In this document: piece after piece, positions 3,761-62,165 of the stretch
Layout of the letters: each line of letters opens with the position of its first letter
Position numbering within the stretch: position 1 is the stretch's first letter
From: Candidatus Woesebacteria bacterium
GTDB taxonomy: Bacteria; Patescibacteriota; Saccharimonadia; Saccharimonadales; EFPC-124
Length of the DNA stretch: 64,000 nt
Direction: 5' to 3'
Assembly: GCA_050115675.1 (NCBI GenBank)
Contig: JASFQB010000002.1
Span: 132,376 to 196,375, forward strand
Position numbers and translations under genes: made by a program
The notes under the pieces: generated by a model
Database searches by the model: none
Told to the model about the DNA's origin: nothing
What the model saw: only the letters and a program-made list of their open reading frames with translations

Positions 3761-3835
3761 TGGGGAGTGGCCAAGTGGTAAGGCACCAGGTTTTGGTCCT
3801 GGCATTCGGGGGTTCGAGTCCCTCCTCCCCAGCCA
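3761..3835 (+). tRNA. tRNA-Gln (anticodon UUG), CCA encoded
   Basis: 75-nt cloverleaf folded by hand. Acceptor TGGGGAG/CTCCCCA, anticodon stem CCAGG/CCTGG with loop TTTTGGT, T-arm GGGGG-TTCGAGT-CCCTC, discriminator G plus CCA. Collinear with E. coli tRNA-Gln. Confidence 0.9.
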
Positions 3836-3837
3836 TG

Positions 3838-3868
3838 AAAAAAGATTGACAAATTGTCAATCTTTTTT
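3838..3868 (+). terminator. Rho-independent terminator of tRNA-Gln (first copy of the repeated junction)
   Basis: aaaaaagattgac-aaat-tgtcaatctttttt; A-run, 9-bp stem, T-run. Confidence 0.7.
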
Positions 3869-3919
3869 CATGATCTACTTATTTTATAACTTTAGAACAG
3901 GTGAGAGTCGGGAATGCTG

Positions 3920-3948
3920 TTGACATAGAAGTTACATAGGAGTATACT
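3920..3948 (+). promoter_or_regulatory. Near-consensus sigma70-type promoter with overlapping ACATAG(G/A)A repeats
   Basis: TTGACA 3920-3925, 17-bp spacer, TATACT 3943-3948. ACATAGAA/ACATAGGA/ACATAGGA start at 3923, 3934 and 3954 (spacing 11 and 20 bp), just upstream of the wHTH-ATPase gene. Confidence 0.5.
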
Positions 3949-3969
3949 TGTTTACATAGGAATGTATGT

Positions 3970-5025
3970 ATGCAAACAAAAGATTTAATTATATCAGCGA
4001 TCAAGAAAGTTTCCGTAAAACACTCTCGTTTTCAATTGAGTGACGTTTTGAAGCTACTTCAAAAAGATAGGGTTAGTAGACAATACGCATCTAGAATTCT
4101 TGCTGAGGAGGTTGCGGCTAAACGACTTGTTTCCTCTGGCACCAGGCGTTATACATTCTATGCCTTGCCTGAAAATGTCGATTCACTTAGAGAGAAGCAC
4201 AGCTGGGGGTTTAAAAATAATGATTTACGCGAATATGAATTGTATCAAAATACTATAGTTGCAACTACGCCCTTCCTTCAGTCTTTACCCGACAATGCAG
4301 AGAGCATACTTGGCTACGCTTTCTCTGAGATGTTTAATAATGCTATTGACCATTCCCATTCAGAGAAAATCAGCACAACTTTTTATCACGAAGATGGCAG
4401 TGTAGTTTTTATTGTACGCGATTTTGGAGTTGGAGTTTTTGAAAGTATTAGAGAAAAATACAGGCTTAGTAATTCACTGGAGGCTATTCAGGAATTACTC
4501 AAGGGCAAGACTACAACAGCCCCTAAGATGCACTCGGGTGAAGGTATTTTCTTTACCTCTAAGGTTGCCGACAAGTTCATACTAGATAGTCGCGATATAC
4601 GTTTGATTATCGATAATACTATTGATGATATTTTTGTGGAAGCACGGCCCCATACTTTACAGGGAACCAAAGTGACCTTTTCTGTTAAAGAGCGTACTAG
4701 AAAACATTTAAGCGATATCTTCAAAGAGTATCAATCTGACGAAGAAGCAATGGCATTTGATAAAACTTTAGTACACGTTAGGCTTTATACGCTAGGTACT
4801 GTTTATGTGTCGCGCTCACAGGCAAGGCGTATTCTGTCTGGGTTAGCGGCCAAGTTTAAGCTAGTCGTTTTAGACTTCGATAAAGTGCCAACGATTGGTC
4901 AAGCCTTTGCTGATGAAGTATTTAGGGTTTTTGTAAATTCACATCCTGATGTAAAAATTGAAGCAGTAAATGCCAATCAGGCCGTAGAATTTATGATTAA
5001 TCGTGCGTTAAATACAAAGCGTTGA
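3970..5025 (+). CDS. wHTH - GHKL (HATPase_c) ATPase - STAS-like DUF4325 protein
   Basis: N-box-like EMFNNAIDHS, G1-like RDFGVGV, G2-like GEGIFFTS. The C-terminal FKLVVLDFDKVPTIGQAFADEVFRVF...MINRA matches the DUF4325/STAS-like pattern. The N-terminal ~60 aa fit a helix-turn-helix. Confidence 0.7.
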   Translation: MQTKDLIISAIKKVSVKHSRFQLSDVLKLLQKDRVSRQYASRILAEEVAAKRLVSSGTRRYTFYALPENVDSLREKHSWGFKNNDLREYELYQNTIVATTPFLQSLPDNAESILGYAFSEMFNNAIDHSHSEKISTTFYHEDGSVVFIVRDFGVGVFESIREKYRLSNSLEAIQELLKGKTTTAPKMHSGEGIFFTSKVADKFILDSRDIRLIIDNTIDDIFVEARPHTLQGTKVTFSVKERTRKHLSDIFKEYQSDEEAMAFDKTLVHVRLYTLGTVYVSRSQARRILSGLAAKFKLVVLDFDKVPTIGQAFADEVFRVFVNSHPDVKIEAVNANQAVEFMINRALNTKR

Positions 5026-5439
5026 GTTTACGTATGTATTCAAATTTGGAATAAAGGTCAAATTTAAAGACTGACCTTACGATATATCGTGACAAAATAT
5101 CAATCGACAACCTTGGTCTTGGTGAACGCGTTTTTATAAAGACTAAGTTTTCGCCTAATAGCAGGAGGTCAAAACGCGATCTAGACGTTGTTCTCATTGA
5201 CAGCGTTCCTGTAAAGCTAATACAATTGCATCGCAATAATTACCCCGCGTAGATGGCCAAAATAGTAAGTACCAGGTGGTGAGGTGTCTGACGATTGATT
5301 GCTTCGTCGACCCCTTGATCTAATCACTGCATAATGCCATATTGTATCCAACTGTGGTTATAATACAATCCAAAATGCGCTATTAGCTAAGTTGATGTTA
5401 TAATAGTATTATGCAGAATAATAATCTAGCGGAGGGCTC

Positions 5440-6831
5440 ATGCAGAGTGTTGATGAGCAGTTTGTAGCGCTGACAAAAAAGGGCGTTCAATGTTATGGGT
5501 ATGAGTATGATTTTACGACAACTATTAGTGAGTTTGTAGAAAGCCAGGGAAACAAAGTAGCCGGACGTGTTCTTGAGATTGATGGCGAAGCGCTGAAGGC
5601 CACAGTTGGCGATGCGACTGCAACTATCAAGGTATCGTTTGAGCATAATGATCACAATACTGCTCTACTGTCATTGTTTAGACCTGGTGACATCGTGGGG
5701 TGCGAAGGTGAATGGAAAAACGACTCACGACGTTTCATCTGTAGACAAGTAACTCTTTTAACAAAAACGCGCGTTGAATACGGCCTGCCCGACAGTCGTG
5801 ACAACCAGCTTAAACTTAAGCATCTTCTGTATATTAATGACAATAATAGCGCCAAGACGATTTTTAAACGAAGCGAAACAATACGTTTAATAAGGGATTA
5901 TTTATACACAAAGGGATTTAACGAAATCGATACGCCGCTACTTCATCCTTTTCAGGGCGATTCTACATCTAAGCCATTGTTTGTTAGTCCTAGTGCATAT
6001 GACGATTTACAGTTCACTCTTGCATCGTCGCCAGAGCTTTACTTAAAAAAGATGCTTGTGAGCGGTTTTAATAAAATATTTACAATCAATAAAGTATTCC
6101 GTGATGAGCAAATAGACAACGCTCATTTAATGGAATTCACGTCGATTGAGTATTATATGGCATACGTTGATTATCGCTACATGATGAACTTTACCGAAAA
6201 ACTATTAAAAAACCTTGCCTCTAAAGTCGTTGGCAAAAAACAGCTACCGTTTAACGGTAATATTATTGATTTTAATAAGCCGTGGGCGCGCATGTCCATT
6301 CATAAAACACTCAAAAAGCATTTTGGTAAGGACATTTTTAAGCTGTCTTACAAAGAATTGCTCGAGTTGGCAAAAACAGTCGATATAACATACGAAAACC
6401 CCACATCATCAGGTAATATTATTATTGATATATTCGAAAGCCTATACCTACATACGCTTATACAGCCAACGTTTATTTATGATTTTCCAAAAGATGCGAG
6501 CGTAATGTGTTATGACATCACGATGGCGAAGGATAGCCGAGAGAATAACCTGCTGCTTGAAAGGTTTGAGCTGTATATTGGTGGTATGGAGCTGGCAAAT
6601 TGCTATTCTGAGCTTAATGATCCAGAAGTGCAAAAAAAGGCGTTTGACAACTTTTTAAAACAGCGCAACAAAGAGCTTAATATGGACGCAACGTTTTATC
6701 ACGCATTGCGCGTTGGCATGCCGCCAGCAAGTGGTGTTGGTTTTGGTATAGATCGTTTACTGATGATTTTGACAGATAATGCAATAATTACAGAAGTGGC
6801 GCCGTTTTCTACATACCATGAAAGCCTTTAA
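5440..6831 (+). CDS. lysS: Class II lysyl-tRNA synthetase, divergent (463 aa)
   Basis: SPELYLKKMLVSGF, motif 2 FRDEQIDNAHLMEFTSIEYYMAY (canonical FRNEG...HNPEFT), ERFELYIGGMELANCYSELND, motif 3 GVGFGIDRLLMILT. N-terminal OB-fold region. GGAGGG RBS 4 nt before the ATG. Confidence 0.75.
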   Translation: MQSVDEQFVALTKKGVQCYGYEYDFTTTISEFVESQGNKVAGRVLEIDGEALKATVGDATATIKVSFEHNDHNTALLSLFRPGDIVGCEGEWKNDSRRFICRQVTLLTKTRVEYGLPDSRDNQLKLKHLLYINDNNSAKTIFKRSETIRLIRDYLYTKGFNEIDTPLLHPFQGDSTSKPLFVSPSAYDDLQFTLASSPELYLKKMLVSGFNKIFTINKVFRDEQIDNAHLMEFTSIEYYMAYVDYRYMMNFTEKLLKNLASKVVGKKQLPFNGNIIDFNKPWARMSIHKTLKKHFGKDIFKLSYKELLELAKTVDITYENPTSSGNIIIDIFESLYLHTLIQPTFIYDFPKDASVMCYDITMAKDSRENNLLLERFELYIGGMELANCYSELNDPEVQKKAFDNFLKQRNKELNMDATFYHALRVGMPPASGVGFGIDRLLMILTDNAIITEVAPFSTYHESL

Positions 6832-7321
6832 CGAAACACAACTTTTTGAACGCGTACGCGATATTCCATACTATACGAGCGATGCCAGCGCGCAATCCTG
6901 CTTTGATAAATGCATTGCATTAAAGCATAGGCTTGATGCTCATGGTCACATCTGCAACTTAATGATTGGCGATTTTTATTGGTCAGACTTAAAATTACCT
7001 AAAGAAATCATGAGACTTTGTAATAAGGATAAGGAGGGTCATGTATTCTTGCGAGTAAAAGCGCCTACAGGCGGTGGCTGGATGAATCTTGATCCAACTA
7101 TAGACATAGCTCTTGGTGAATATTTTACTGTCGAGCAATGGGATGGCAGATCGAGCACTGGTATTATGATGCCGCTCACAAATATTCGTGTCTATCGACC
7201 GTTTTCGTTTTTGGAACGGACTAAATCGAAGGCCCGACGACTGCTTCACCGAACAGAACCAAACAAAGTTTTTTACAGAGCTTTTGATTCTTGGCTCGAT
7301 GATATGCGACTAGGTAATTAG
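6818..7321 (+). CDS. Transglutaminase-like (Cys-His-Asp) superfamily protein
   Basis: Pattern RDIPYYT...QSCFDKCIALKHRL...GHVFLRV...WMNLDPT fits the transglutaminase-core Cys/His/Asp order. Overlaps the lysS 3' end by 14 nt. Confidence 0.55.
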   Translation: MKAFNETQLFERVRDIPYYTSDASAQSCFDKCIALKHRLDAHGHICNLMIGDFYWSDLKLPKEIMRLCNKDKEGHVFLRVKAPTGGGWMNLDPTIDIALGEYFTVEQWDGRSSTGIMMPLTNIRVYRPFSFLERTKSKARRLLHRTEPNKVFYRAFDSWLDDMRLGN

Positions 7322-8111: not shown

Positions 8112-8711
8112 ATGGGCAAAACTGTCTACGCTTTTATCGATAGCCAAAACCTTAACCTGGGCGTTCGCTCTTTGGGTTGGCGCATTGACTACAAGAAATT
8201 TCGGCTCTATTTAAAAAACAAATATAACGTTGAACGCGCATTTATGTTTATTGGGCTTGTTGGCAATAATCAAAAGCTTTACACGGAATTGTAGGCGGCT
8301 GGTTTTATTTTGATTTTTAAGCCAACTGTTCAGTATTTTGAGAATGGTAAAAAGACGGTAAAAGGTAATGTGGATGCTGAGCTTGTTCTGCATGCCGCTG
8401 CAATTGAATTCGCAAATTACGATAAAGCGATTATTGTTAGTGGTGATGGAGATTTTGCCTGTTTATTGGAGTTTCTTCTAGACAATAAAAAACTCAAAAA
8501 TATCTTGACTCCAAACCATAAATACTCAAAGTTGCTCAAGCCGTTTTCTTCACATATTATTCACATCAGCCAGCTAAAAAATCTATTGAATACAAAAAGA
8601 CCGGCATCGGCGGTCGAAACCTTAGGCCTATCCGGTCATGGTGATATTGTTAGTATAACAGGCGCTCTAATGATTTGTCAAATATTAATAATCATTTCTT
8701 GGCAGGTAAAA
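8112..8711 (+). pseudogene. NYN/LabA-like (PF01936-type) nuclease gene interrupted by in-frame TAG
   Basis: YAFIDSQNLNLG...MFIGLVG...LYTEL*AAGFILIFKP...GNVDAELVLHAA...AIIVSGDGDFACLLEFL is collinear with NYN domains. TAG at 8292-8294 is in frame. No stop separates this gene from the next. Confidence 0.7.
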
Positions 8712-9719
8712 ATGTCAAATCCGATTCATGTAAAATCAATTGCCTACGGCGTATCCGAGTGCGACCCAATTGAGCTAGCACGCTCCGTAGACGACACTAG
8801 GCGGCTCGTTTTTCTGCCTATCATCCATAATAACAAGGAGAAAAATGGCGCCGTTACCGGTACTTTTGTATATCAGCGCAAATTAAAAACCGATAAGTGG
8901 GACAAGGTGCCGTCGGGGGACGAACAGCTTAGTAGGCTTAAAGCTGGCGAAGGATATCGATTGGAGCTAAGCACCGATGCGGTTACTAAATTAGTCTCCA
9001 GTCTTATGGAAATCGAAAGCATTGCTGAACAGGTTCGTAGTGGATCAACTAACACTACATTTGTGCCTACGGCAAATGATCTGGCTCCATTACTTACATA
9101 GTTACTAGAGAGTCTTGGCGATAAAGAGGCTTTGGCAGAAATATCTAGGTTAGGCAAAGAAAACGCTCTTCGCCTAAACGACCTAATCCTGAACGCGCGA
9201 ATCCGCTCTGCCCTTAAATATTGGCAAGAGCACAAGGATGACGCAGACGAAGAAGCTTGGCAACGATTTTTTAGTAATCGGCCCTGGATACTGTCTCTGA
9301 TATCGCCAGAACCTATCGTAATTCTCAAGGATAAAATGTACGTTGGCGGAACAAATGCGTCCGCGAAGGGCGGCAAAACGGTAGATTATGGCTTAATTAA
9401 TAAGCAGACAAATAATACGGCACTCTTAGAAATCAAGACGCCAAAAACGCAGCTTTTAGGAAGCGAATACAGGGGTGTCTTTCCGCTCTCTAATGCCTTG
9501 TCAGGATCAATCCTTCAAGTCTAGACTTACAAATATAATCTAATCAAGAACCTTCCTACGCTCAAAGAAGATTTCGGATTTTTCGAAGCAGCAAATGTTG
9601 CTACTTATGTCCTAGCTGGCAATACAACACAGTTAACGGATGAGACTCAAAAACGCTGCTTTGAACTGGGACGCAAGCCTAGAATTCGTCAAGCGTATCT
9701 TCCTCTTCGTCGTCATTAA
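8712..9719 (+). pseudogene. Shedu-like DUF4263 (SduA-type) nuclease gene, two in-frame TAGs and truncated C-terminus
   Basis: EEAWQRFFSNRPWIL...GKTVDYGLI...ALLEIKTPKTQLL...SGSILQV*TYKYNL...TYVLAGN matches the DUF4263 D...E-x-K...Q core. TAGs at 9099-9101 and 9522-9524. The usual C-terminal TYDeL segment is missing. Confidence 0.65.
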
Positions 9720-9855: not shown

Positions 9856-9950
9856 AGCAAACCCTGCCGATCATGACATAAAAGGTTTGGACTACGTCCT
9901 TCCTCGCCAGCCATGGAAAATGACACATGCACAAGTATGTGTCATTTTTT
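9836..9950 (+). repeat. Third junction copy: ~80-bp direct repeat containing a degenerate tRNA-Gln 3' end plus hairpin terminator
   Basis: gtccttcctcgccagccatg matches tRNA gtccctcctccccagccatg at 18/20. It is followed by aaaatgacacat-gcacaagt-atgtgtcatttttt. 9836-9918 aligns with 18602-18686 at about 75%. Confidence 0.65.
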
Positions 9951-10018: not shown

Positions 10019-10852
10019 ATGAATAGCCCAAGGCTTATCTCTACTTATCTGCTTGATGGGTCAATTGAAGGTGTGCGGATTATTGAACTGTCTGAAAGCT
10101 CAATTAAGGCTTTTGTTATCCCGCGTATCAAGCTCAACGACGTTAAAACGCGCGATGAAATAAATTGGCCAGCACTGTATCTGCTCATAAATTCCGGCGA
10201 CAACCAGCTTTACATTGGTGAAAGCGAAAAATTTTATGACCGCGTTAAAAATCACGATCAGTCCAAAGACTTTTGGGACGTAGTAGTTGCTATCGTGTCT
10301 AGTAATAATTCACTAGAGAAAAGTGATGTAAAATACCTTGAAAGCCTCGCGGTTAAAAAAGCCAAAACAACCGCGGCTATGGAAGTGCTAAATAAAACCG
10401 TACCTGTGCGCAATAACATACATGAGTTTAAGATTCACTCGTTGGAAAAAACTTTGGAAGATGTCGCGCTAATTGCCGAGAGTTTAGGTTATAGTATATT
10501 TAGGTCTGAAAATATAACCGCCGCCAGCACTTGGTATGTTAAAGCCAAAAAAACCGACGCCAAGGCCGAGTTTCGTGGTGATAAATTTGTAATTATAGCC
10601 GGCTCTAAAATAGACAAGAGCGTAGCCCTAAGCTTCAAAAAAGGTTGGCCAAAACGCTATCTAGAAAGAGAAGAAATACTTACAAAGGCCAAAGATCACG
10701 GCGACCACGTAGTGCTTTTAGAGAATATACCGTTTAAAAGTCCTAATTTGGCATCAGATTTTGCAACTGGCAGATCTACGAATACCTGGATTACCTGGAA
10801 GAACAAAGACGGAAAGACTATGGATGAAGTTATACGAAAAGGAGAATCATGA
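10019..10852 (+). CDS. GIY-YIG nuclease domain / DUF4357 protein
   Basis: [28 protein letters not shown] (GIY-YIG-like core). The C-terminal [18 protein letters not shown] is typical of DUF4357. ATGA overlap with hsdM. Confidence 0.65.
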
Positions 10853-12411
10853 GCAGTAGCCATAACAATCAGCGGTCAGAATTACATCGCGCCATTTGGC
10901 AGATCGCCAATGACGTGCGTGGCGCAGTTGACGGCTGGGATTTTAAGCAATACGTGCTTGGTGCGCTTTTTTACCGCTTCATTAGCGAAAACTTTGCTGC
11001 TTATATTGAGGCCGACGATGCAAGCATTAATTACGCCAGTATGCCCGACGACGTTATCGCCCCTGAAATCAAAGACGACGCCATCAAGACGAAAGGCTAC
11101 TTCATCTACCCCAGCCAACTGTTTGTTAATGTGGCGAAGAATGCCCACGACAACGAAAGCCTCAATACGGATCTAGCTAAGATATTTTCTAGCATAGAAT
11201 CATCGGCCAACGGCTATCCGTCGGAGCAGGACATTAAGGGCCTGTTCGCAGACTTTGATACTACCAGCAACCGGCTTGGCAATACTGTTGCAGCCAAGAA
11301 CGCTCGGCTAGAGCGAGTGCTTAAGGGTGTAGCGGGTCTTAAGTTTGGCGATTTTCACGGCAGTGAGATTGATCTTTTTGGTGACGCATACGAGTTCTTG
11401 ATCTCAAACTACGCTGCCAATGCGGGTAAGTCCGGAGGCGAGTACTTCACGCCGCAAAACGTGTCCAAGCTTATCGCCCAACTAGCCCTTCATAAACAAG
11501 AGAATGTCAACAAGATTTACGACCCTGCTTGCGGTTCTGGCTCCCTTCTTTTGCAAGCCAAGAAGCAGTTTGACGCCCACATCGTCGAAGAAGGTTTCTT
11601 TGGCCAAGAGCTTAATCACACCACTTACAACCTAGCACGCATGAACATGTTTCTGCACAACATAAACTACGACAAGTTTAATATCCAGCTGGGCGACACA
11701 CTTATTGACCCACACTTTGGTAGCGACAAGCCATTCGACGCCATCGTGTCCAATCCGCCATACTCCGTACATTGGAAAGGCTCCGATAATCCAACACTTA
11801 TCAATGACGATCGCTTTGCGCCTGCTGGTGTTTTAGCACCCAAGTCAAAGGCAGACTTTGCTTTTGTGCTGCACGCTTTAAGCTACCTTTCTGGCAAAGG
11901 TCGCGCGGCGATTGTGTGTTTCCCAGGCATATTCTACCGCGGTGGTGCCGAACAGAAAATTCGGCAATATTTGGTAGACAATAACTATGTTGAGGCGGTC
12001 ATATCGCTGGCGCCTAACCTGTTTTTTGGAACAACCATTGCAGTAAACATCCTGGTACTTGCCAAGAACAAGCTCAATACTAGTACGCTGTTCATTGATG
12101 CTAGCGGCGAAGAGTTTTTCAAAAAAGCTACCAACAACAATGTTATGTTGGATGAACATATCGCCAAGATCGTGGGGATGTTTGATAGTAAAGAAGATGT
12201 TGAATATATAGCAAGGTCCGTAACGTATGAAGATATCGTCCAAAACGATTACAACTTGTCCGTTAGCTCCTATGTCGAAGCCAGAGATAATCGCGAAGTT
12301 GTTAACATTGCCGAGCTGAATGAAGAAATAAAAACCACTGTTGGCAAGATAGACCAGCTCAGGAGCGATATAGATAAAATTGTGGCGGAGATCGAGGGCG
12401 GTAAACAATGA
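10849..12411 (+). CDS. hsdM: Type I restriction-modification system, DNA methyltransferase subunit
   Basis: N-terminal HsdM_N pattern ([10 protein letters not shown]...[13 protein letters not shown]), AdoMet motif [10 protein letters not shown], catalytic VSNPPYS. Confidence 0.9.
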
Positions 12412-13244
12412 AAAGCAAAATCCAACTATTCCAAGACCAGCAAGTACGAACCGCATGGAACGTAGACAAAGAAGAATGGCTTTTGTCTGTAGTTGATGTT
12501 ATAAGAATACTAACCGACCAGCCAGACCACCAATCCGCACGAAACTATTGGAAGGTGCTAAAAAATAGAATACAAAAAGAAAGTGGCCAACCGGTTACAA
12601 AACGTAACCAGTTGAAAATGCGAGCCGAAGATGGCAAAATGCGCCTAACCGATGTGGCGAATCAACAAGAGTTATTGCGCATCATTCAATCAGTACCAAG
12701 TAAAAAAGCAGAGCCGTTCAAGCAATGGCTAGCGCAGGTCGGTGCAGATAGATTGGATGAAATTCAAAATCCAGAACTGGCCATAGATCGCGCCATGATA
12801 TACTATCGCAACTTAGGCTACGACGAGGGCTGGATAAATGCTTGCTTGCAGTCCATACAATTCCGCAAAGAACTTACCGACGAATGGAAACGCACTGGCG
12901 TCAAAGAAGGCCAAGAGTACGCAATGCTTACTAATATTATGGTACAGGGTTGGTCCGGTAAAACAATCAAAGATTATAAGCAGTTCAAGGGGCTCAAAAA
13001 AGAAAACTTACGCGACAATATGACGAGCCTTGAGCTTGCGCTCAATATCTTGGCAGAAACTACGGCAACAGAGCTATCAAAAACTAGTGATCCGCAGGGC
13101 GTCGCTGCCCAAAAAGACATATCTCAACGCAGCGGGAAAATAGCTGGTGATGCGCGTAAGAATATCGAAAGCCAAACTGGACAGAGTGTCATAAGCCCAC
13201 AAAATGCCAAAGATTTACGATTAGGCGAAGGCAATAGAAAATGA
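12408..13244 (+). CDS. Bro-N domain protein (phage antirepressor-like) inserted in the R-M operon
   Basis: [29 protein letters not shown] fits Bro-N. ATGA overlaps at both ends. Flanked by a duplicated hsdM 3' end. Confidence 0.6.
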
Positions 13245-14307: not shown

Positions 14308-15479
14308 GCCAGCCTGGCTTTTTAGAAAAGTTGCTTGATGATGCCGACGTAGAGCGGCTACCTTTAGGTGATGTAGTCAAACTTCAGAGAGGCAAAAGGC
14401 TTGTGCGAAGTCAACTGGATGAAGTCGGTAAATATGCTGTATACCAAAATAGCATGAAGCCGCTGGGTTATTATCACGAAAGTAATGTTGAGGCCGATAC
14501 AACATTTATTATATGCGCTGGCGCAGCAGGTGAGATTGGCTATAGTGATGTCAATTTTTGGGCAGCGGATGATGTTTACATCTGCTTAACGCCAAATAAT
14601 CTATTGAGTAGGTATTTATACCATTTTTTGTTGGACCAAAAGAGTACTATTCTATCTCAGGTTCGCAAGGCAAGTATTCCGCGTCTATCCAAAACAGCGA
14701 TTGAAAAGCTGCAAATCCCAATCCCATGCCCAGATGATCCGGAAAAATCGTTGGCTATTCAAGCAGAGATTGTACGTGTGCTAGACTTGTTTACAGAGCT
14801 AGAAGCAGAGCTAGAAGCAGAGCTAGAAGCAGAGCTAGAAGCACGTAAAAAGCAATACAACCACTACCGCGATCAACTTCTCACTTTTGGGCCAAGTGTT
14901 GAACGGATCAGCCTAGCTGATGTTGGCAAAATATCTATGTGCAGACGTATATTTAAAAACGAAACTTCACCCGATGATGGGATTCCTTTTTTCACAATTG
15001 GCACATTCGGGAAAAAGGCAGCTTTCTACATATCCAGAGAACGATTTGGGACCTACAAGAGTAAGTACTCATATCCTAAAGTTGGAGATATTCTTTTGTC
15101 TGCTTCAGGAACGATAGGAAGGCGAGTCATATTTGATGGCTCAGATTCATACTTTCAAGATTCAAATATTATCTGGATTGATAATGATGAAAGTAAAGTT
15201 CTAAATAAATTCCTCTTCTACCTTTACGAAATTATCACATGGGAGACTGAGGGCGGAACAATTAAACGGCTTTACAACCGCAATATTAAAAAAATTGAAA
15301 TACCAGTTCCGCACCTCAAAGAACAGGCGCGAATCGTAGGCATTCTTGATAAGTTCGACACACTGGCCAATTCAATTAGTGCGGGTCTACCGAGAGAAAT
15401 TGAACTGCGCCAAAAACAATATCGATATTACCGAGATTTATTATTTAGTTTTTTAACAAAAAAGGAACAAAATGACTGA
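14304..15479 (+). CDS. hsdS: Type I restriction-modification system, specificity subunit
   Basis: Two variable target-recognition regions are separated by the central conserved helix ([13 protein letters not shown]...[15 protein letters not shown]). Distal conserved region [15 protein letters not shown]...[16 protein letters not shown]. Confidence 0.85.
14796..14843 (+). repeat. Perfect 12-bp x4 tandem repeat (gagctagaagca = ELEA) in the hsdS central helix
   Basis: Read directly: four identical in-frame units at 14796-14843. Confidence 0.95.
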
Positions 15480-20991: not shown

Positions 20992-22003
20992 ATGGTTAAC
21001 ATAATAAAAGGCTTAGGGCTAAGTCGTTTATTGCCATCAAAGACGATGTGGCAAAGGATTGCTTTAATTGCGGCGTTGTTTTTGACGGTATTTGTTTTAG
21101 TATGGGTTGTTCTTGCGGTGCCGTTTTTGTCTAGGTGCCATCCAGAGCTTAGCGCAACTTTGGATACTTCTGAAAGTTTTTACAATTCCGAGACGGGCGC
21201 TGTGGGCCAAGTTGTAAATAACCTAACGCTTTTAAACTATGACGTTACTAGCACGGGCGATGCGTACGGTGTAAGTGCTAAGTTTGTTGTGCTTGATTCT
21301 GAGGGGCGGAGCTGTGGAAGTCTGTTCATGACTATAGTATTGATGCGCGAACTAAAGAGGTCCAGGGCGCGGGCGGATATCTATCTAGCCCGCCCATGAC
21401 TGACGGTGTTTCAGATTATAATTTTTGGGATCCAAAGTATGGCACAGAGCTGCATATGAAGTTTATATCTTCAGAGACACTCCAGGGGCTTGAGGTTGAT
21501 CGCTGGCAGACTATGATCAAAACGTTACCCAGCAATTTAAAGACTCTCAGGGCTACTCAGGAGATCATGACATTGTCTCAAAAGGCACCGTCACCGCCTG
21601 GGTGGAGCCCGTAACGGGCAACTTGATTGATCTTAATAGAACAGAGAATTTATATTATTATGACCAGCAAACTTTTGAGGATGTTTCTTTATGGAAAAAG
21701 GTTGTAAGTAAGTTTAGCTATTCTTCTGTTGTTGATTTGGCGGCGCAAACGCGATCACAAATATCGTTTGTGAATATTGTTAGCGCCTGGGTGGTAGTAA
21801 TCGTTATGTTAACTTTGGCAATAATTATTGCCTACATCGTTGGCTCGTATTTTGATAGCCATAAAAAAATGGTGTTGATGGTATTTCGGCAGGGATGTAT
21901 TCGACAGTACTTACCCTTAGTCTTTTTATGCTTATTGGCAGTGTGGCAATTGATCCTAATGGCATCGCAAAGATTAGTGGGCTTTTTGAGATTCATCCTA
22001 TAA
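20992..22003 (+). pseudogene. DUF3068 (PorA-family) membrane protein gene broken by two frameshifts
   Basis: Three consecutive ORFs in three frames (20932.., 21396.., 21602..). The pieces are collinear with DUF3068: N-terminal TM, YNFWDPKYG, then KGTVTAWVEPVTGNLIDL readable across 21577-21630, and a C-terminal TM. Confidence 0.6.
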
Positions 22004-24612
22004 GTGCAGACGTTTTGCTTGTCTTGGCGATAATTGCAATAATAGCGTCCTTTGCTGGCAAAATAAGCAAAATTATAAAGGCGGCAATGCTATTAGCGTT
22101 ATTGGCGCTGATTGTGCTGGGTGTCTATCGTTTATTCTTTGACGGCACAGTTGAGATTACGCAGCTTGGCATATCTTGTTTAATGCTTATTAGCCTTGCG
22201 CTTTGTCTTGCGATTATAGATTCTGCAAATAAGATCTTAATATTTGTGTTTAAGGCGTCTCTTATGATTGTCGGGGCGTTGATGTTTTTATCTGCAATAC
22301 TTTCGCCGTTTAAGCTAGAACTAGAGAATTATATATTTTGGTTGGTGGACGTGCCGCTGTCTAGCGCGGCGTTGATATTGGTTTTGGCTGTGGCGGTATT
22401 TAGGTCTAGCTACAAAAAAGCACATAGCTCGAAAAATATATTTACGGGTGCTGCAAGGGCGGCGTTAGTAGTAGGCTGTGTCTCTGTTTTGCTTACGGGA
22501 TATATTTGGCGTTCGCTTGAGGATACCGCCGCTGTTAATGTCCAGCAGGGATTTGAAGAAGAAACTAACGACATAGTTGAGCTTGTCGATGATGGTCTAA
22601 GCTCTCAAGCACTTGCTCTTGAGGCTGGGGCTGGGTTGTTTATGGCGTCGCCTAATGTTAGTCGCGCAGAGTGGAATAACTTTTTCAGTAGCCTAAGACC
22701 TTTAGAGAATTTTCCTGGCGCGGTTGGTATTGGTTTTGCTCGATTAATTGATACTCCGGAAAAGAAAAAACAATTTGAGCAAGTTTTGCAAAATTCAGGT
22801 TTTGGGCATACCGAGATTTACCCTCAGGAGCCAGCTCGAGATTATTATGTTGTTGTAGACTACGTTGCTCCTCATGAGGAGAACGCCAGCGCAATTGGCT
22901 ATGACATGTATTCTAGCACCGTACGCAAAAAGGCTTTAGATACCGCGCGTGATAGCGGCGAAGTAACGATGAGTGATAGCACGGTTCTGATTGTTGATGA
23001 AAGCGATAATCCGCAGTACAGCTTCCAGATATATGCCCCAGTCTACAGGGCGGGTACGGAGTTTGACACGCTTGCGCATCGTCGAGAAGGCCTGATTGGC
23101 TTTACGCTTAGCCCAATTCGTGTAACCGAATTTATGCAAATTGTTGTTGGCGATCGCTATGATGATATTGGAATCAATATTTATGACACTTCGAGTGCTG
23201 ATGATGCTAGCGAAGAAAATCTGGTTTATAGCTCGGCAAAAGGCGCAGATCTTGCTGCTTCTAAATATTCACGCACAGTAGTTTATGCCTTTGCTAACCA
23301 TAATTTGGTAATTGAGTTTGGCTCTTTGCCGGGCTATGCTTCGACCGGCACTGCCGCAAGCTATTCGGTTTATGTTTTAATCAGCGGAATTATGCTAAGC
23401 CTGTTTTTGGGAACAGCTACTTATGGACTTTATCGTTCGCGACGTCGTGTATCGGACTTGGCCAAAAATATTACAGAAGATTTGCGATTGGAACGCAACC
23501 AGGCTGTAAGAATTAAGAAGGAAGACGAAGCTATCTTGTCTAGTATGGGGCAAGGCATGATGTTTTTTGACAGAAAGGCTATCATTCGCCATTCAAATGT
23601 TATGCTCTCGCAGATTACGGGTTATCCGCAGTCTGAGTATCTAGACCATAAGCTATCTAGTATTTTTAAGATGGTTGGTAGCTCAGGAAAGATCATCGCT
23701 GCGGATGACGAGATAGTTTACGCAATGATGAAAAACTCTCAAATGCATTCTGAATTTGAGCGTCTGGTTTTGCGCAAGGATGGCAGTACTGTTCCTGTAA
23801 AGGTTAATCTCTCTTTGGTTTTGATTGGCTCGGAGCCTATTGGTGTTGTTGCGATCATAACTGACATGACGAAGCAGCATCAACTGGACCAAGCTAAAGA
23901 TATGTTCTTAATGCTGGCGACTCATCAAATCAAAACTCCTGCCACAGCTATTAAATGGTACGCAGAAATGTTGCTTGGGCGTGACGGCAGCTGGCGTAGC
24001 TTGCCTGCAGACAAAAGAAAAGTTGCTTTGCTTATAGACAATAGCGTAAAACATATGCTTTATGTTATGAATAATCTCTTGGACGTTTCGCGACTTGAAA
24101 CTGGACGCCTTAGGCTAGACCTTAAACGTACCAGTCTGGATAAAATCGTTAGGCAGGTTGTTGGCGATTTCAAGTTTCAAACAAAAGCCAAAGGGCAACG
24201 CATAAAGTACACTTGTTCTGATGGTTTGGCACTGGTTGCTACAGACAAACAGCTTATGACGCAGGTATTCGCAAATCTAATAAGCAATGCCGTAAAATAT
24301 TCACCTAATGGCGGAGCTATCGAGGTGTGCATTGAGCAGGATTCAAAAAACGTATCTATCTCAATAAGCGACAGTGGCATGGGAATTCCAAAAGATCAGC
24401 ACGCCGAAGTTTTTAAAAAGTTCTTCCGTGCGCAGAATGCAGTCAAAGAAGAATCAAGCGGTAACGGCTTGGGCTTGTATTTGGCTAAGGCGGTCGTTGA
24501 AGCTAGTGGCGGAAAAATCACCTTTAAGAGCACTAAAGGCAAGGGGTCGACATTTACCGTAACTCTGCCTCGTCATACAGAAGAAAAAGAGATTAGAGTA
24601 AAACTTAATTAG
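21895..24612 (+). CDS. Membrane sensor histidine kinase with CHASE and PAS domains
   Basis: About 8 N-terminal TM helices. CHASE-like segment (AVGIGFARLI...YYVVVDYVAPHEENASAIGYDMYS...FQIYAPVY). PAS region. H-box LATHQIKTPATAI, N-box NLISNAVKYSP, G1 DSGMGIP, G2 GNGLGLYLAK. The start is uncertain because the ORF overlaps the DUF3068 3' end. Confidence 0.8.
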   Translation: MYSTVLTLSLFMLIGSVAIDPNGIAKISGLFEIHPISADVLLVLAIIAIIASFAGKISKIIKAAMLLALLALIVLGVYRLFFDGTVEITQLGISCLMLISLALCLAIIDSANKILIFVFKASLMIVGALMFLSAILSPFKLELENYIFWLVDVPLSSAALILVLAVAVFRSSYKKAHSSKNIFTGAARAALVVGCVSVLLTGYIWRSLEDTAAVNVQQGFEEETNDIVELVDDGLSSQALALEAGAGLFMASPNVSRAEWNNFFSSLRPLENFPGAVGIGFARLIDTPEKKKQFEQVLQNSGFGHTEIYPQEPARDYYVVVDYVAPHEENASAIGYDMYSSTVRKKALDTARDSGEVTMSDSTVLIVDESDNPQYSFQIYAPVYRAGTEFDTLAHRREGLIGFTLSPIRVTEFMQIVVGDRYDDIGINIYDTSSADDASEENLVYSSAKGADLAASKYSRTVVYAFANHNLVIEFGSLPGYASTGTAASYSVYVLISGIMLSLFLGTATYGLYRSRRRVSDLAKNITEDLRLERNQAVRIKKEDEAILSSMGQGMMFFDRKAIIRHSNVMLSQITGYPQSEYLDHKLSSIFKMVGSSGKIIAADDEIVYAMMKNSQMHSEFERLVLRKDGSTVPVKVNLSLVLIGSEPIGVVAIITDMTKQHQLDQAKDMFLMLATHQIKTPATAIKWYAEMLLGRDGSWRSLPADKRKVALLIDNSVKHMLYVMNNLLDVSRLETGRLRLDLKRTSLDKIVRQVVGDFKFQTKAKGQRIKYTCSDGLALVATDKQLMTQVFANLISNAVKYSPNGGAIEVCIEQDSKNVSISISDSGMGIPKDQHAEVFKKFFRAQNAVKEESSGNGLGLYLAKAVVEASGGKITFKSTKGKGSTFTVTLPRHTEEKEIRVKLN

Positions 24613-61625: not shown

Positions 61626-62056
61626 ACATCTTCTGGAACAGAAAGCAGCTTTTCTAGCCTAGCTCGGTTGGCCCATTGGTCTGCAAGCTCGTTGCCGGGG
61701 TCGTTATTGTGTCCACGCACCCAGCTTAGTTCGGCATTTGACTTGCGGTAAAGTGAGCAAACTTCAATAACTATGTCTAGGTTTTTTATTTCGCCACCTT
61801 TCTTTTTCCAGCCGTTTTTTTCCCACGTTAAAGACCACTTTGTAATTACGTTTATCCAAAATTCGCTATCTGTATGTATTTTTGCGCTTTGACTGCCCGC
61901 GTCTTTTAGCGCGGCTATTAGTGCAAAGCCTTCCATTCTAATGTTTGTAGATTCAATTTCGTGGCCAAGCAGATGAGGTTTCATCTCTTTGATAACGGCA
62001 AAACCCCCAGCGCCTGGGTTTGGCTCGCAACTGCCGTCAGTGTGATAAATGATCAT
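61622..62056 (-). CDS. rnhA: Ribonuclease HI
   Basis: DEDD residues in YHTDGSC, TNIRMEGFA, IHTDSE, GNELADQWA. Length 144 aa. Confidence 0.85.
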   Translation of the reverse strand: MIIYHTDGSCEPNPGAGGFAVIKEMKPHLLGHEIESTNIRMEGFALIAALKDAGSQSAKIHTDSEFWINVITKWSLTWEKNGWKKKGGEIKNLDIVIEVCSLYRKSNAELSWVRGHNNDPGNELADQWANRARLEKLLSVPEDV

Positions 62057-62165
62057 TTTAACATTTTATGCTGCAAATGCATTTTAATCAATGTAAGGGG
62101 CATTTTAAGCTGCGCCAAATTGTCAAGAGTTTACTTTGCACTATTTATTAATGATAATAATTACC

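Follow-up and report, generated by a model that had tools for sequence, protein, structure and literature searches.

The window analyzed here, a stretch of DNA of 64 kb from a CPR (candidate phyla radiation) bacterium taken at its full length, contains a gene for a 351-residue protein in which a putative DNA-binding domain is fused to an ATPase module of the anti-sigma type and a STAS-like domain. We conclude that this gene probably encodes a stand-alone, single-chain transcription regulator of its own synthesis, with a predicted GHKL-STAS switch that would relieve repression in a manner resembling CapK/CapS. The protein belongs to an uncharacterized family that is found chiefly in Patescibacteria, with further relatives carried by prophages. 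Clustering at 50% identity divides the family into about 900 groups (E ≤ 1e-30), and at 90% identity there are at least 7,989 clusters. Its closest characterized analogue is the CapK/CapS pair, known here from the published description.

The first ATG of the open reading frame agrees with the N-termini of homologues. The encoded protein consists of a predicted N-terminal winged helix, a GHKL domain of the SpoIIAB/RsbW type, and a C-terminal STAS-like DUF4325 domain (Table 1), and the AF2 model of the full-length protein has a pLDDT of 82.9. This architecture had been proposed in an earlier reading based on the letters alone (hereafter the sequence-only reading), and Pfam, AF2, and motif conservation all bear it out. 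The same reading held that a phosphoacceptor domain is missing. Indeed, neither the window protein nor its homologues have a HisKA/DHp family match in Pfam, whereas in two-component histidine kinases the catalytic domain is preceded by a DHp/HisKA domain that bears the phospho-accepting histidine, and the matches to NCBIfam histidine-kinase models are confined to the N-box/G1 stretch (10–16 bits). Searches of PDB sequences with the protein, a whole-protein profile, and a profile of the C-terminal domain returned insignificant matches alone, namely designed 'Pizza' proteins, N-box/G1 stretches of histidine kinases, and the HhH proteins Hef and RecR (E 0.1–0.4). No PADLOC-DB 2.0 family was matched at E values up to 1, and a search with family HMMs found neither paralogues nor separate STAS or GHKL partners in the 64-kb window.

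Table 1. Positions of the gene, its domains and motifs, and the neighboring DNA elements within the window.
Feature	Position	Strand	Basis
tRNA-Gln (UUG), conserved upstream neighbor in the sub-clade of the window gene	3761..3835	+	ARAGORN, Rfam
Hairpin after the tRNA, AAAAGATTGACAA-A-TTGTCAATCTTTT	3840..3866	+	read from sequence
Sigma-70-type promoter: −35 TTGACA (3920-3925), 17-nt spacer, −10 TATACT (3943-3948)	3920..3948	+	promoter scan
Putative operator repeat O1, TGACATAGAA, overlapping the −35	3921..3930	+	sequence; equivalent in relatives
Putative operator repeat O2, TTACATAGGA, in the spacer, 11 bp past O1	3932..3941	+	sequence
Putative operator repeat O3, TTACATAGGA, 20 bp past O2	3952..3961	+	sequence
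CDS, 351 aa, wHTH-GHKL-STAS-like	3970..5025	+	ORF, homologue N-termini, Pfam
Predicted winged helix-turn-helix, aa 1-70	3970..4179	+	AF2 topology, weak Pfam matches in homologues, covariation with operator
SpoIIAB/RsbW-type GHKL (Bergerat) ATPase/kinase domain, aa 106-243	4285..4698	+	Pfam, Foldseek, motifs
GHKL N-box, E120..H128	4327-4353	+	motif conservation
GHKL G1, D151xGxG	4420-4434	+	motif conservation
GHKL lid/G2, K178..S197	4501-4560	+	motif conservation
STAS-like DUF4325 domain, aa 262-351	4753..5022	+	Pfam, AF2/Foldseek, conservation
Invariant S281-R-S-Q-A-R-R287	4810-4830	+	conservation
Invariant G310-Q-A-F-A-D-E316	4897-4917	+	conservation
Degenerate remnant TTTACGTAT of a second, downstream operator array	5027..5035	+	intact arrays in relatives

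The GHKL domain is recognized by Pfam as HATPase_c_2 (28.9 bits, cut-off 27.4, residues 106–207), and HATPase_c falls slightly under its own cut-off (25.2 versus 26.4 bits). Across 136 representatives, one per 50%-identity cluster, the residues E120, N123/N124, H128, D151xGxG155, K178-G-K-T-T-T, and H188-S-G-E-G192 are invariant. Since every ATP-binding motif is thus both present and invariant, the GHKL assignment, which the absence of these motifs would have undone, stands. The N-box (SEMxNNAIxHS) and the lid (TTxP...HSGEGIFF) we take to be comparable to the motifs of SpoIIAB itself. SpoIIAB is also the nearest structural relative: the best Foldseek matches of the full model are 1til, 1l0o, 1tid, and 1th8 (best E 5e-6, TM 0.72–0.74 normalized to SpoIIAB), followed by LvrC (ranks 6–7), UsfX, and RsbW. 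GyrB gives weak matches (E about 1e-2) limited to the GHKL part, and whereas a transducer with the ribosomal S5 fold follows the GHKL domain in ATPases of the MutL/GyrB/MORC type, it is directly followed by the STAS-like domain in the window protein. LvrC of Leptospira, composed of Rec and a Bergerat anti-sigma domain (PDB 9qih; PMC13269768), likewise has a regulatory domain fused to an RsbW-like Bergerat domain, but it takes its input through a receiver domain and contains neither a DNA-binding nor a STAS domain.

The C-terminal domain matches DUF4325 (PF14213) with 51.6 bits (gathering cut-off 23, 7.9e-14, residues 287–339), as do all 35 aligned homologues. The AF2 model of residues 252–351 alone has a pLDDT of 77, and essentially all of its top Foldseek matches are STAS domains, with probabilities of 0.94–1.0 and modest E values (5e-3 and above); they include RsbS (6jhk, TM 0.61/0.54), TM1442 (0.61/0.56), and the STAS domains of prestin/SulP. 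The resemblance to anti-sigma or partner-switching regulators that the sequence-only reading had noticed is therefore visible in both parts of the module, the full model leading to SpoIIAB, LvrC, UsfX, and RsbW, and the C-terminal domain to STAS alone. An HhH-like similarity of the segments VSRSQARR and VPxxGQAFADE was rejected as a guide to the fold, since the two AF2 models show the beta-alpha topology of STAS. In STAS anti-sigma antagonists, CapS, and VapS, a conserved Ser/Thr at the start of helix 2 is phosphorylated by the cognate GHKL kinase, and the phospho-serine of CapS/VapS is absolutely conserved (PMC13373217). The present family, by contrast, lacks a conserved counterpart. Helix 2 begins at the invariant G310-Q311, residue I309 is hydrophobic, and the equivalent position, mapped by motif and secondary structure to approximately T308, is threonine or serine in only 50 of the 136 representatives, which makes a classical kinase-substrate relation in cis doubtful.

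No significant Pfam match was obtained for the N-terminal domain in the window protein itself, and the assignment of this domain as a winged helix rests on the topology predicted by AF2 together with weak matches in homologues. The model (pLDDT about 90 in this region) has helices at residues 3–17, 23–29, and 37–49 and strands at 54–56 and 63–65, that is, a helix-helix-helix-strand-strand topology, with the predicted recognition helix around V35-S-R-Q-Y-A-S-R-I-L and the wing at G57-T-R-R-Y-T-F-Y-A-L. Among 35 homologues, AbiEi_4, Penicillinase_R, HTH_IclR, HTH_24, and MarR_2 are each weakly matched by two to eight members, AbiEi_4 by eight and Penicillinase_R by five (best 7e-6). Some homologues thus show weak profile similarity in this domain to autorepressors of the AbiEi and BlaI/MecI types, which repress their own promoters via repeated sites. 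Those proteins are dimers that act on inverted repeats and have no GHKL or STAS domain, whereas the sites in the present family are mostly direct repeats on a single helical face.

In front of the gene, the promoter scan gives 11 of 12 consensus matches for TTGACA-17-TATACT, the promoter named in the sequence-only reading, and the three repeats said to overlap it are also found as described, ACATAGAA at 3923 and ACATAGGA at 3934 and 3954, with spacings of 11 and 20 bp. O3 covers the AGGA ribosome-binding site (3958–3961) and, judging from where it lies with respect to the −10, the expected transcription start as well. On both strands of the 64 kb, ACATAGRA has six matches against 3.7 expected, three of which are the promoter repeats, lying within 39 bp. 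A second ACATAG pair does not occur elsewhere in the window, even at one mismatch per site, and no regulon target beyond the gene's own promoter was found there. An equivalent of O1 is present in a series of relatives (loci L002, L003, L004, L005, L205, L206, and L208). Five relatives show almost no variation between GTTGACATAG and the ATG, while the sequence upstream of this block is not alignable, and promoter and operator are the sole non-coding DNA conserved among close relatives. The hairpin that follows the tRNA gene probably serves as the terminator of the tRNA and not as an operator; L208 retains it, with a change that still permits a U.G pair. A metagenome scan for ACATAG-N5-ACATAG-N14/15-ACATAG returned at least 120 contigs with satellite-like tandem repeats, whose names suggest termite and coral metagenomes as their source, and none of those listed encodes a homologue.

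Equivalent arrays accompany homologues of 41–87% identity in unrelated contexts. In 81 homologue promoters, T[TG]ACA occurs on average 2.93 times per 130 nt upstream, compared to 0.32 times in 381 control upstream regions, a 9-fold enrichment over other promoters of the same genomes, part of which could reflect promoter strength because the repeat core TTGACA is the −35 consensus. Three or more copies are present in 53 of the 81 homologue promoters, as against 2 of the 381 controls. The gaps between adjacent sites (n=158) fall at 11–12 bp in 73 cases, at 20–22 bp in 64, and at 32–34 bp in eight, so that 145 of them correspond to one, two, or three helical turns. Across 1.14 Mb of loci, clusters of at least three sites occur 53 times at the gene's own promoter versus 11 times elsewhere, and at least two of these 11 belong to the gene as well, being the downstream array of L004 and the promoter array of L077 in reverse orientation. 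Furthermore, the flanks of the repeats covary with the winged-helix sequence: ACATAG goes with the wing S/T-R/K-R-Y-T, ACAAT mostly with GSTR, and ACAAC with GSTA, and an inverted repeat type, GTTGACAACTT, goes with the wing GKAN and the helix FSRAYINRF. The suggestion of an autoregulatory operator made in the sequence-only reading thus gains from comparison, since phased repeats precede nearly every homologue. That the repeats would form a family-wide operator through which the gene represses its own promoter is strongly supported by these comparisons, and we infer that the family protein binds them from co-occurrence and covariation among loci uncorrected for kinship.

These observations suggest a model in three steps. 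In the first, strongly supported by comparison, the winged helix would bind direct T[TG]ACAnnn repeats, which are placed one or two helical turns apart on the same face of the DNA and cover the −35, the spacer, and the transcription start/RBS. Because the repeats overlap these elements, their occupancy should block RNA polymerase, which would amount to negative autoregulation by several cooperating protomers. In the second step, suggested by fold and motif conservation, the Bergerat domain would be able to bind ATP, and the STAS-like module, of a kind that docks on Bergerat domains, is assumed to do so here. Together they may form a nucleotide- or ligand-dependent switch of oligomerization, and hence of DNA binding, that operates by ATP/ADP-dependent docking or by phosphorylation; if phosphorylation takes place, the more likely acceptors would be S281/S283, which are invariant and lie where STAS helix 1 begins, or else a separately encoded protein. 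In the third step, proposed by analogy with CapK/CapS, a signal at the GHKL-STAS interface would lift repression.

In the system that provides this analogy, CapK (an HTH-STAS-GHKL kinase) is activated by ssDNA held between its STAS and GHKL domains and phosphorylates the STAS-wHTH repressor CapS, whose dimer is thereby broken and transcription derepressed (PMC13373217). The capK gene is always followed by capS, encoding the separate STAS-wHTH repressor, and usually then by an immune operon (Chambers et al., EMBO J 2026, PMC13373217). The HTH, the SpoIIAB-like GHKL kinase domain, and the STAS domain are building blocks in common with CapK/CapS and VapKSC, and a wHTH repressor with multiple sites in its own promoter region is a further likeness to CapK/CapS. 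However, the domain order is wHTH-GHKL-STAS in a single chain instead of HTH-STAS-GHKL, and the window gene, unlike capK, is monocistronic and has neither a capS-like partner nor a conserved downstream gene or operon in 84 loci.

An extended form of the model, which we consider possible but doubtful, holds that the single-chain partner switch sets the cooperative occupancy of the arrays in response to ATP or a nucleic-acid signal, and that it loops or insulates its own gene as a transferable array-gene-array cassette, possibly to sense damage or infection in CPR bacteria and in the prophages of other phyla. Arrays do bracket the gene on both sides in the clade of the window gene: three T[TG]ACATAG-type repeats, spaced by 11 and 20/21 bp, start 0–2 nt past the stop codon in L002, L003, L004, L205, L206, and L208, and in the window the downstream array is degenerate.

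The same arrangement might be taken to mean that promoter, gene, and flanking arrays constitute a selfish or conflict cassette, a self-contained unit that moves horizontally, for example a single-gene phage defense or addiction system with a kinase-like effector, but we regard this as unlikely. The conserved unit is exactly array-gene-array, and its contexts are unrelated even at 85–87% protein identity, several of them being variable or rich in defense genes, such as the window and L002 (with PLD, WYL, AAA_15, and SocA/Panacea genes). Moreover, 47 relatives reside on predicted viral contigs, including a group of gut prophages with the gene between a RinA/sigma-r4-like regulator and terminase genes, and the phage family phrog_3364 matches the GHKL part. 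DUF4325 proteins belong to VapKSC toxin-antitoxin defense (PMC13373217; PMC5499597), and the DUF4325 family, which has been reported to be coupled with the VapC 'PIN.4' group (PMC5499597), presumably corresponds to VapS. Against such a cassette speak the lack of any detected recombinase or nuclease domain and of any PADLOC match, the housekeeping position beside jag-yidC-rnpA-dnaA in two lineages, and the tRNA-Gln linkage kept in the sub-clade of the window gene. In addition, the downstream array is limited to the ACATAG clade, and neither empty-site nor duplication evidence for movement was found.

It is quite improbable, too, that the protein acts primarily as an anti-sigma factor, with the GHKL domain sequestering a sigma factor, the fused STAS-like domain serving as a built-in antagonist, and the winged helix merely autoregulating or tethering. 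Such a function would fit the best structural matches, all of which are anti-sigma Bergerat domains, and the label 'anti-sigma regulatory factor (Ser/Thr protein kinase)' carried by family members in the JGI annotation, but taken alone it leaves the conservation of a DNA-binding domain and of multi-site arrays unexplained. The SpoIIAB-SpoIIAA and RsbW-RsbV pairs are separate small proteins encoded together with their sigma factor. In the window protein, on the other hand, the GHKL and STAS domains are fused, a putative DNA-binding domain is added, and the phospho-site is not conserved; neither a sigma factor nor a separate STAS gene is adjacent in the Pfam-annotated loci, and no sigma factor recurs in the clustering of the 84 loci.

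We attach very little probability to the idea that the repeats are stacked −35-like elements or sites of another regulator and not the operator of the family protein. The core T[TG]ACA indeed coincides with the −35 consensus, but the repeats share 9–10 nt, beyond the hexamer, and are also found past the −10 (O3) and past stop codons, which promoter strength cannot explain. The phasing at multiples of about 11 bp, the 9-fold enrichment, and the covariation with the wHTH likewise stand against it.

Finally, the sequence-only reading had regarded the gene as cargo of a tRNA-flanked insertion and its product, in view of the odd aaRS pair next to it, as a candidate sensor or switch of an uncharacterized module. 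In the window, tRNA-Gln and the gene are followed by a LysRS-like paralogue and then by Shedu-like and type I restriction-modification genes, the gene-aaRS order is repeated on two other contigs with an identical protein, and CapK/CapS-type regulators control adjacent immune operons (PMC13373217). A survey of 84 loci, however, revealed no conserved neighbor family. The commonest, Fic, occurs in seven loci at scattered positions, and it was rejected as a linked partner because the six members with the Fic motif differ in position and strand; among these, L036 alone has the same wHTH type and repeats. Relatives of 74–87% identity have entirely different neighbors on both sides. In the 85%-identical relative L002, DNA similarity is limited to 3919–5034, that is, promoter and gene, and ends 9 nt past the stop codon, and the other genes of that locus have no homologue in the window. 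The aaRS gene has its own promoter (5197–5226, 11/12), and no operator repeat precedes it or occurs elsewhere in the 64 kb. As for the tRNA, the 74%-identical homologue L206 has an intact tRNA-Gln 210 bp upstream of the gene, and L208 and L002 retain remnants of a tRNA 3' end in front of the gene, so the tRNA-gene pair is the stable part and variable DNA begins past the stop codon. An island boundary marked by an att-site repeat of the 3' end of tRNA-Gln was rejected because no downstream copy was found, the best being a 14-mer with two mismatches at 9900, within chance. The gene is therefore a resident next to tRNA-Gln, a link that recurs in relatives with different downstream DNA, and not island cargo. 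A role for the protein as sensor or switch of the aaRS pair or of the downstream defense island, for which PADLOC also offers no matching model, is thus largely refuted by the neighborhood survey and hardly credible.

To our knowledge, the small genomes of CPR/Patescibacteria have few recognizable regulators, and almost nothing is known of their transcription control. Because the DNA target of this family can be read from genomes, as phased T[TG]ACAnnn repeats with lineage-specific flanks that covary with the winged helix, the family would lend itself readily to tests of how DNA is recognized and how signals exert control in organisms that are not culturable alone. The CapK/CapS logic of GHKL kinase, STAS, and HTH would be extended to a fused form that works without a partner, which raises the question of whether an anti-sigma-type kinase module can exert control in cis over a DNA-binding domain. 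As regards annotation, labels such as 'anti-sigma regulatory factor' and 'DUF4325 protein' may conceal what is predicted here to be an autoregulated transcription factor.

The gene under study encodes a protein in which Pfam recognizes a HATPase_c_2 domain at residues 106–207, exceeding the gathering score, and a STAS-like DUF4325 domain at residues 287–339 (51.6 bits against a cut-off of 23), but no HisKA or DHp domain. NCBIfam matches all stay below threshold and involve SpoIIAB and the histidine-kinase N-box/G1 stretch, PADLOC gave no match for the protein, and PDB sequence searches were uninformative. An AlphaFold2 model built with 35 homologues as input (mean pLDDT 82.9, pTM 0.67) comprises three N-terminal helices and a β-hairpin, a predicted winged helix, followed by a Bergerat fold and a β-α C-terminal domain. 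Its top PDB matches in Foldseek are to the anti-sigma factor/Ser kinase SpoIIAB (1til, 1l0o, 1tid, and 1th8; E 5e-6 to 5e-5, TM 0.72–0.74 normalised to SpoIIAB), after which come LvrC, a Rec-anti-sigma protein (PMC13269768), DesK catalytic domains, UsfX, and RsbW. Residues 252–351 modelled alone (pLDDT 77) match almost exclusively STAS domains, namely those of RsbS, TM1442, prestin and SulP proteins, and the stressosome. Some homologues also show weak matches to the wHTH families AbiEi_4, Penicillinase_R, HTH_IclR, HTH_24, and MarR_2. Pfam, AlphaFold2, and Foldseek thus confirm the three-domain architecture (predicted wHTH, GHKL ATPase, STAS-like) proposed in the sequence-only reading; the lack of a phosphoacceptor domain and the resemblance to partner-switching regulators, the latter through the SpoIIAB-like GHKL and STAS matches, are likewise borne out.

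An identical protein is recorded from a metagenome-assembled genome labelled Candidatus Woesebacteria, which places the window in a CPR/Patescibacteria genome. The family is large: clustering at 90% identity gives at least 7,989 clusters and at 50% identity 897 (E ≤ 1e-30), and GTDB species representatives contribute at least 529 loci. About 59 of the best 80 of these loci bear CPR names, the remainder being labelled as Omnitrophota, Planctomycetota, Coriobacteriales, and others, or carrying no label. Members are uniformly ~340–355 residues long with identical architecture. Among 136 representatives, one per 50%-identity cluster, the GHKL motifs are present and invariant or nearly so (E120, N123, N124, H128, D151, G153, G155, K178, K180, T182, H188, G190, and G192), as are S281-R282-S283, R287, G310-Q311, D315, E316, and R319 of the C-terminal domain. 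The motifs SRSQARR and GQAFADE are both kept in a 91-residue stand-alone DUF4325 protein on a viral contig (locus L255, 5376–6255), directly 3' of a higB/higA-like toxin–antitoxin pair, so at least one other DUF4325 architecture shares them. The C-terminal part of a 915-residue ORF elsewhere in the window (21865–24609), probably an ordinary sensor histidine kinase, weakly matches the GHKL N-box/G1 of the family profile. Relatives 33–39% identical occur in predicted gut prophages from IMG/VR (loci L225, L228, L229, L233–L241, L244, L248, and L253), adjoining the genes for the terminase small and large subunits, and many of these loci have a small sigma-region-4/RinA-like regulator on the gene's other side. 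We found no literature on DUF4325 treating the wHTH-GHKL-STAS architecture; the family is uncharacterised so far.

Coordinates of the gene, its regulatory elements, and its flanking genes (L handles denote fetched genomic loci carrying homologues)
Feature	Locus	Coordinates	Strand	Remark
tRNA-Gln	window	3761–3835		5' of gene
Perfect hairpin	window	3840–3866		3' of tRNA-Gln
Sigma-70-type promoter TTGACA-17-TATACT	window	3920–3948		11/12 match
Operator repeat 1, TGACATAGAA	window	start 3921		overlaps -35 element
Operator repeat 2, TTACATAGGA	window	start 3932		fills spacer
Operator repeat 3, TTACATAGGA	window	start 3952		over expected transcription start and AGGA ribosome-binding site
wHTH-GHKL-STAS gene	window	3970–5025	+	ORF of 351 codons
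Downstream array	L002	9057–9100
Downstream array	L003	8100–8145
Downstream array	L004	9054–9095
Downstream array	L205	4105–4150
Downstream array	L206	2149–2195
Downstream array	L208	1864–1910
Flanking genes	window			upstream tRNA-Gln; downstream LysRS-like paralogue
Flanking genes	L208 (87% identity)			upstream remnant of tRNA 3' end; downstream peptidase S51
Flanking genes	L002 (85% identity)			upstream CHAP/PLD/HTH genes; downstream unknown genes
Flanking genes	L205 (77% identity)			upstream hydrolase; downstream HAD
Flanking genes	L206 (74% identity)			upstream rpsP-KH, then tRNA-Gln; downstream unknown genes
Flanking genes	L003/L004 (56–58% identity)			upstream glycosyltransferases; downstream jag-yidC-rnpA-dnaA

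The promoter and the three repeats overlapping it had been described correctly in every particular. ACATAGRA occurs six times on the two strands of the whole window, three of the six being the promoter repeats, and nowhere in the window except at the gene's own promoter are two such sites close together. Within the 110 nt 5' of the start codon, nearly every homologue has three to five direct repeats composed of a T[TG]ACA core and a tail that differs by lineage: the window's clade (L002–L005, L007, L205, L206, and L208) has ACATAG, most Parcubacteria-like and Peregrinibacteria loci have ACAAT(T/C/A), and others have ACAAC(T), ACAAG, ACATT, or AACATA. In the most distant members the -10 element is instead surrounded by GTTGACAACTT ... 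AAGTTGTCAAC, an inverted pair. On average, T[TG]ACA is found 2.93 times per 130 nt upstream of 81 homologues, compared with 0.32 times in 381 regions upstream of other genes at those loci, and three or more copies are present in 53/81 and 2/381, respectively. Clusters of at least three sites in the 1.14 Mb of loci number 53 at the gene's own promoter and 11 elsewhere, and at least two of the latter belong to the gene itself (a downstream array in L004 and a reverse-orientation promoter array in L077). The 158 gaps between adjacent sites fall mainly at 11–12 bp (73), 20–22 bp (64), and 32–34 bp (8), that is, at one, two, or three helical turns. Across loci that are not phylogenetically independent, the repeat tail varies in step with the wHTH wing and recognition helix, the pattern that a protein–site pair would be expected to show. 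Five close relatives share an almost unchanged stretch running from GTTGACATAG to the ATG, 5' of which their sequences cannot be aligned. The proposed autoregulatory operator is thus supported by repeats that are conserved, phased, and co-varying with the wHTH across a large family, and, judged from these sequences, the protein very probably binds the T[TG]ACA repeats and represses its own promoter.

Among the matches listed in a metagenome-wide scan for the triple repeat, only satellite-like, apparently eukaryotic DNA was found. The window itself holds a perfect 12-bp tandem repeat (CAGAGCTAGAAG x 4.2, 14794–14843) and local triple repeats of CGTAATT (352/373/383), AGATATT (29047/29062/29077), and CATTTTA (62054–62101). 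At L020 (6588–8939), an operator array (3 x TTTACAATT) is parted from a frameshifted copy of the gene by an opposite-strand hicA/hicB-like pair, which looks like an insertion that disrupted the cassette. At L036 (1143–2217, minus strand), a Fic-domain protein (HPFEDGNGR) bears at its C-terminus a winged helix of the gene's N-terminal type (VSRQQAHNLL...KKGSTKASYYYL) and three TTTACAA repeats just 5' of its start; the wHTH/operator module thus seems to have been joined to a different enzyme domain.

Six loci of the ACATAG clade (table) carry three further T[TG]ACATAG-type repeats right after the stop codon, a second array in the same orientation and with the same 11 and 20/21 bp spacing, whether or not the next gene is convergent. 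It is absent from the wider family, and all that is left of it in the window is one degenerate first copy, TTTACGTAT, at 5027–5035, the exact end of the similarity to L002. The array could serve in DNA looping with the promoter array, act as a roadblock or insulator, or mark an end of a movable cassette.

The gene had also been proposed as a candidate sensor or switch of an uncharacterised local module, next to an odd aminoacyl-tRNA synthetase pair. When ORFs were called in 84 loci and all 1,141 neighbour proteins clustered, the only family present in 84/84 was the gene itself. The next most frequent reaches 7/84, at positions -3 to +2 and on varying strands, six of its members carrying a Fic motif. 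Adjacent genes lie on either strand, with median gaps of ~90–130 bp, and the gene's context differs even among its closest relatives (table). Window and L002 DNA align only over 3919–5034 (75.5% identity), from one base 5' of the -35 element to nine bases past the stop, and no other L002 protein has a homologue within the 64-kb window. The LysRS-like gene has a strong promoter of its own (TTGACA-18-TACAAT, 5197–5226) and no operator repeats. Given the lack of a conserved neighbourhood, the local-module proposal is largely refuted; the gene product is very probably an autoregulated, partner-switch-like regulator and not a sensor of the adjoining aminoacyl-tRNA synthetase or defence genes. The LysRS-like class II paralogue (5440–7321, 463 residues) also resembles EpmA/LysX, and its best NCBIfam match, lysine-tRNA ligase, reaches 347 bits and so falls short of the cut-off of 468; a 167-residue ORF without family match (6818–7321) overlaps its end. 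Further 3', a defence-rich stretch comprises a Shedu-like gene in two ORFs, NYN + SduA_N (8310–9101) and SduA_C (9132–9524), either a frameshifted pseudogene or a two-part Shedu, followed by a GIY-YIG/DUF4357 protein, the type I restriction-modification methylase HsdM, and a Bro-N domain protein (10019–13244).

Nor is the gene the cargo of a tRNA-flanked insertion, as had been suggested, since tRNA-Gln or its remnants precede it in relatives: intact in L206, as the 3' end with the same hairpin in L208, and as 13 nt in L002. No downstream duplicate of the tRNA-Gln end was found. The conserved part is thus the tRNA–gene pair, with variable DNA starting after the stop codon. The hairpin includes TTGACAA/TTGTCAA, which is similar to the inverted operator found in distant members of the family; judging from a change in L208 that would still permit a U.G pair, it is probably just the tRNA terminator.

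An autonomous conflict cassette has some support, as 47 relatives lie on predicted viral contigs, the gene sits between a RinA/sigma-region-4-like regulator and terminase genes in one gut-prophage group, phrog_3364 matches the GHKL part, and several contexts are rich in defence genes. However, recombinase, nuclease, and known defence signatures are all absent from the protein, and in some lineages the gene occupies a housekeeping position. Anti-sigma function proper is possible given the SpoIIAB-like fold, but no sigma gene is linked. That the repeats are mere stacked -35 elements is contradicted by their length, phasing, and covariation with the protein, and by their occurrence both past the -10 element and beyond stop codons.

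For an autoregulated, partner-switch-like regulator, the closest characterised system is CapK/CapS. CapK, an anti-sigma-kinase-like protein of HTH-STAS-GHKL order, becomes active when ssDNA binds between its STAS and GHKL domains. It then phosphorylates the STAS-wHTH repressor CapS at Ser54 in helix 2, so that the CapS dimer falls apart and transcription is derepressed (PMC13373217). DUF4325 genes were earlier reported to be coupled to a VapC group (PMC5499597), which would fit VapS of the related VapKSC system (PMC13373217). The same three modules occur here, but in the order wHTH-GHKL-STAS, on a single chain, and without a partner gene. By analogy, the GHKL/STAS pair may act as a nucleotide- or ligand-dependent switch on oligomeric state, which would set cooperative wHTH binding to the phased repeats. 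The analogy has a limit: T308, equivalent to the CapS phospho-serine position, is T or S in only 50/136 representatives, making canonical cis phosphorylation unlikely. A candidate phospho-acceptor or phosphate-binding site is the invariant S281-R-S283, where STAS helix 1 begins. Among regulators built on the GHKL-kinase/STAS/HTH theme, this family is best regarded as a new, fused variant.

The main new result is that the phased repeat operator is a trait of the family. To our knowledge, almost no regulators are known from CPR/Patescibacteria; for this family the DNA target can be read off the sequence, and the system is open to direct testing.
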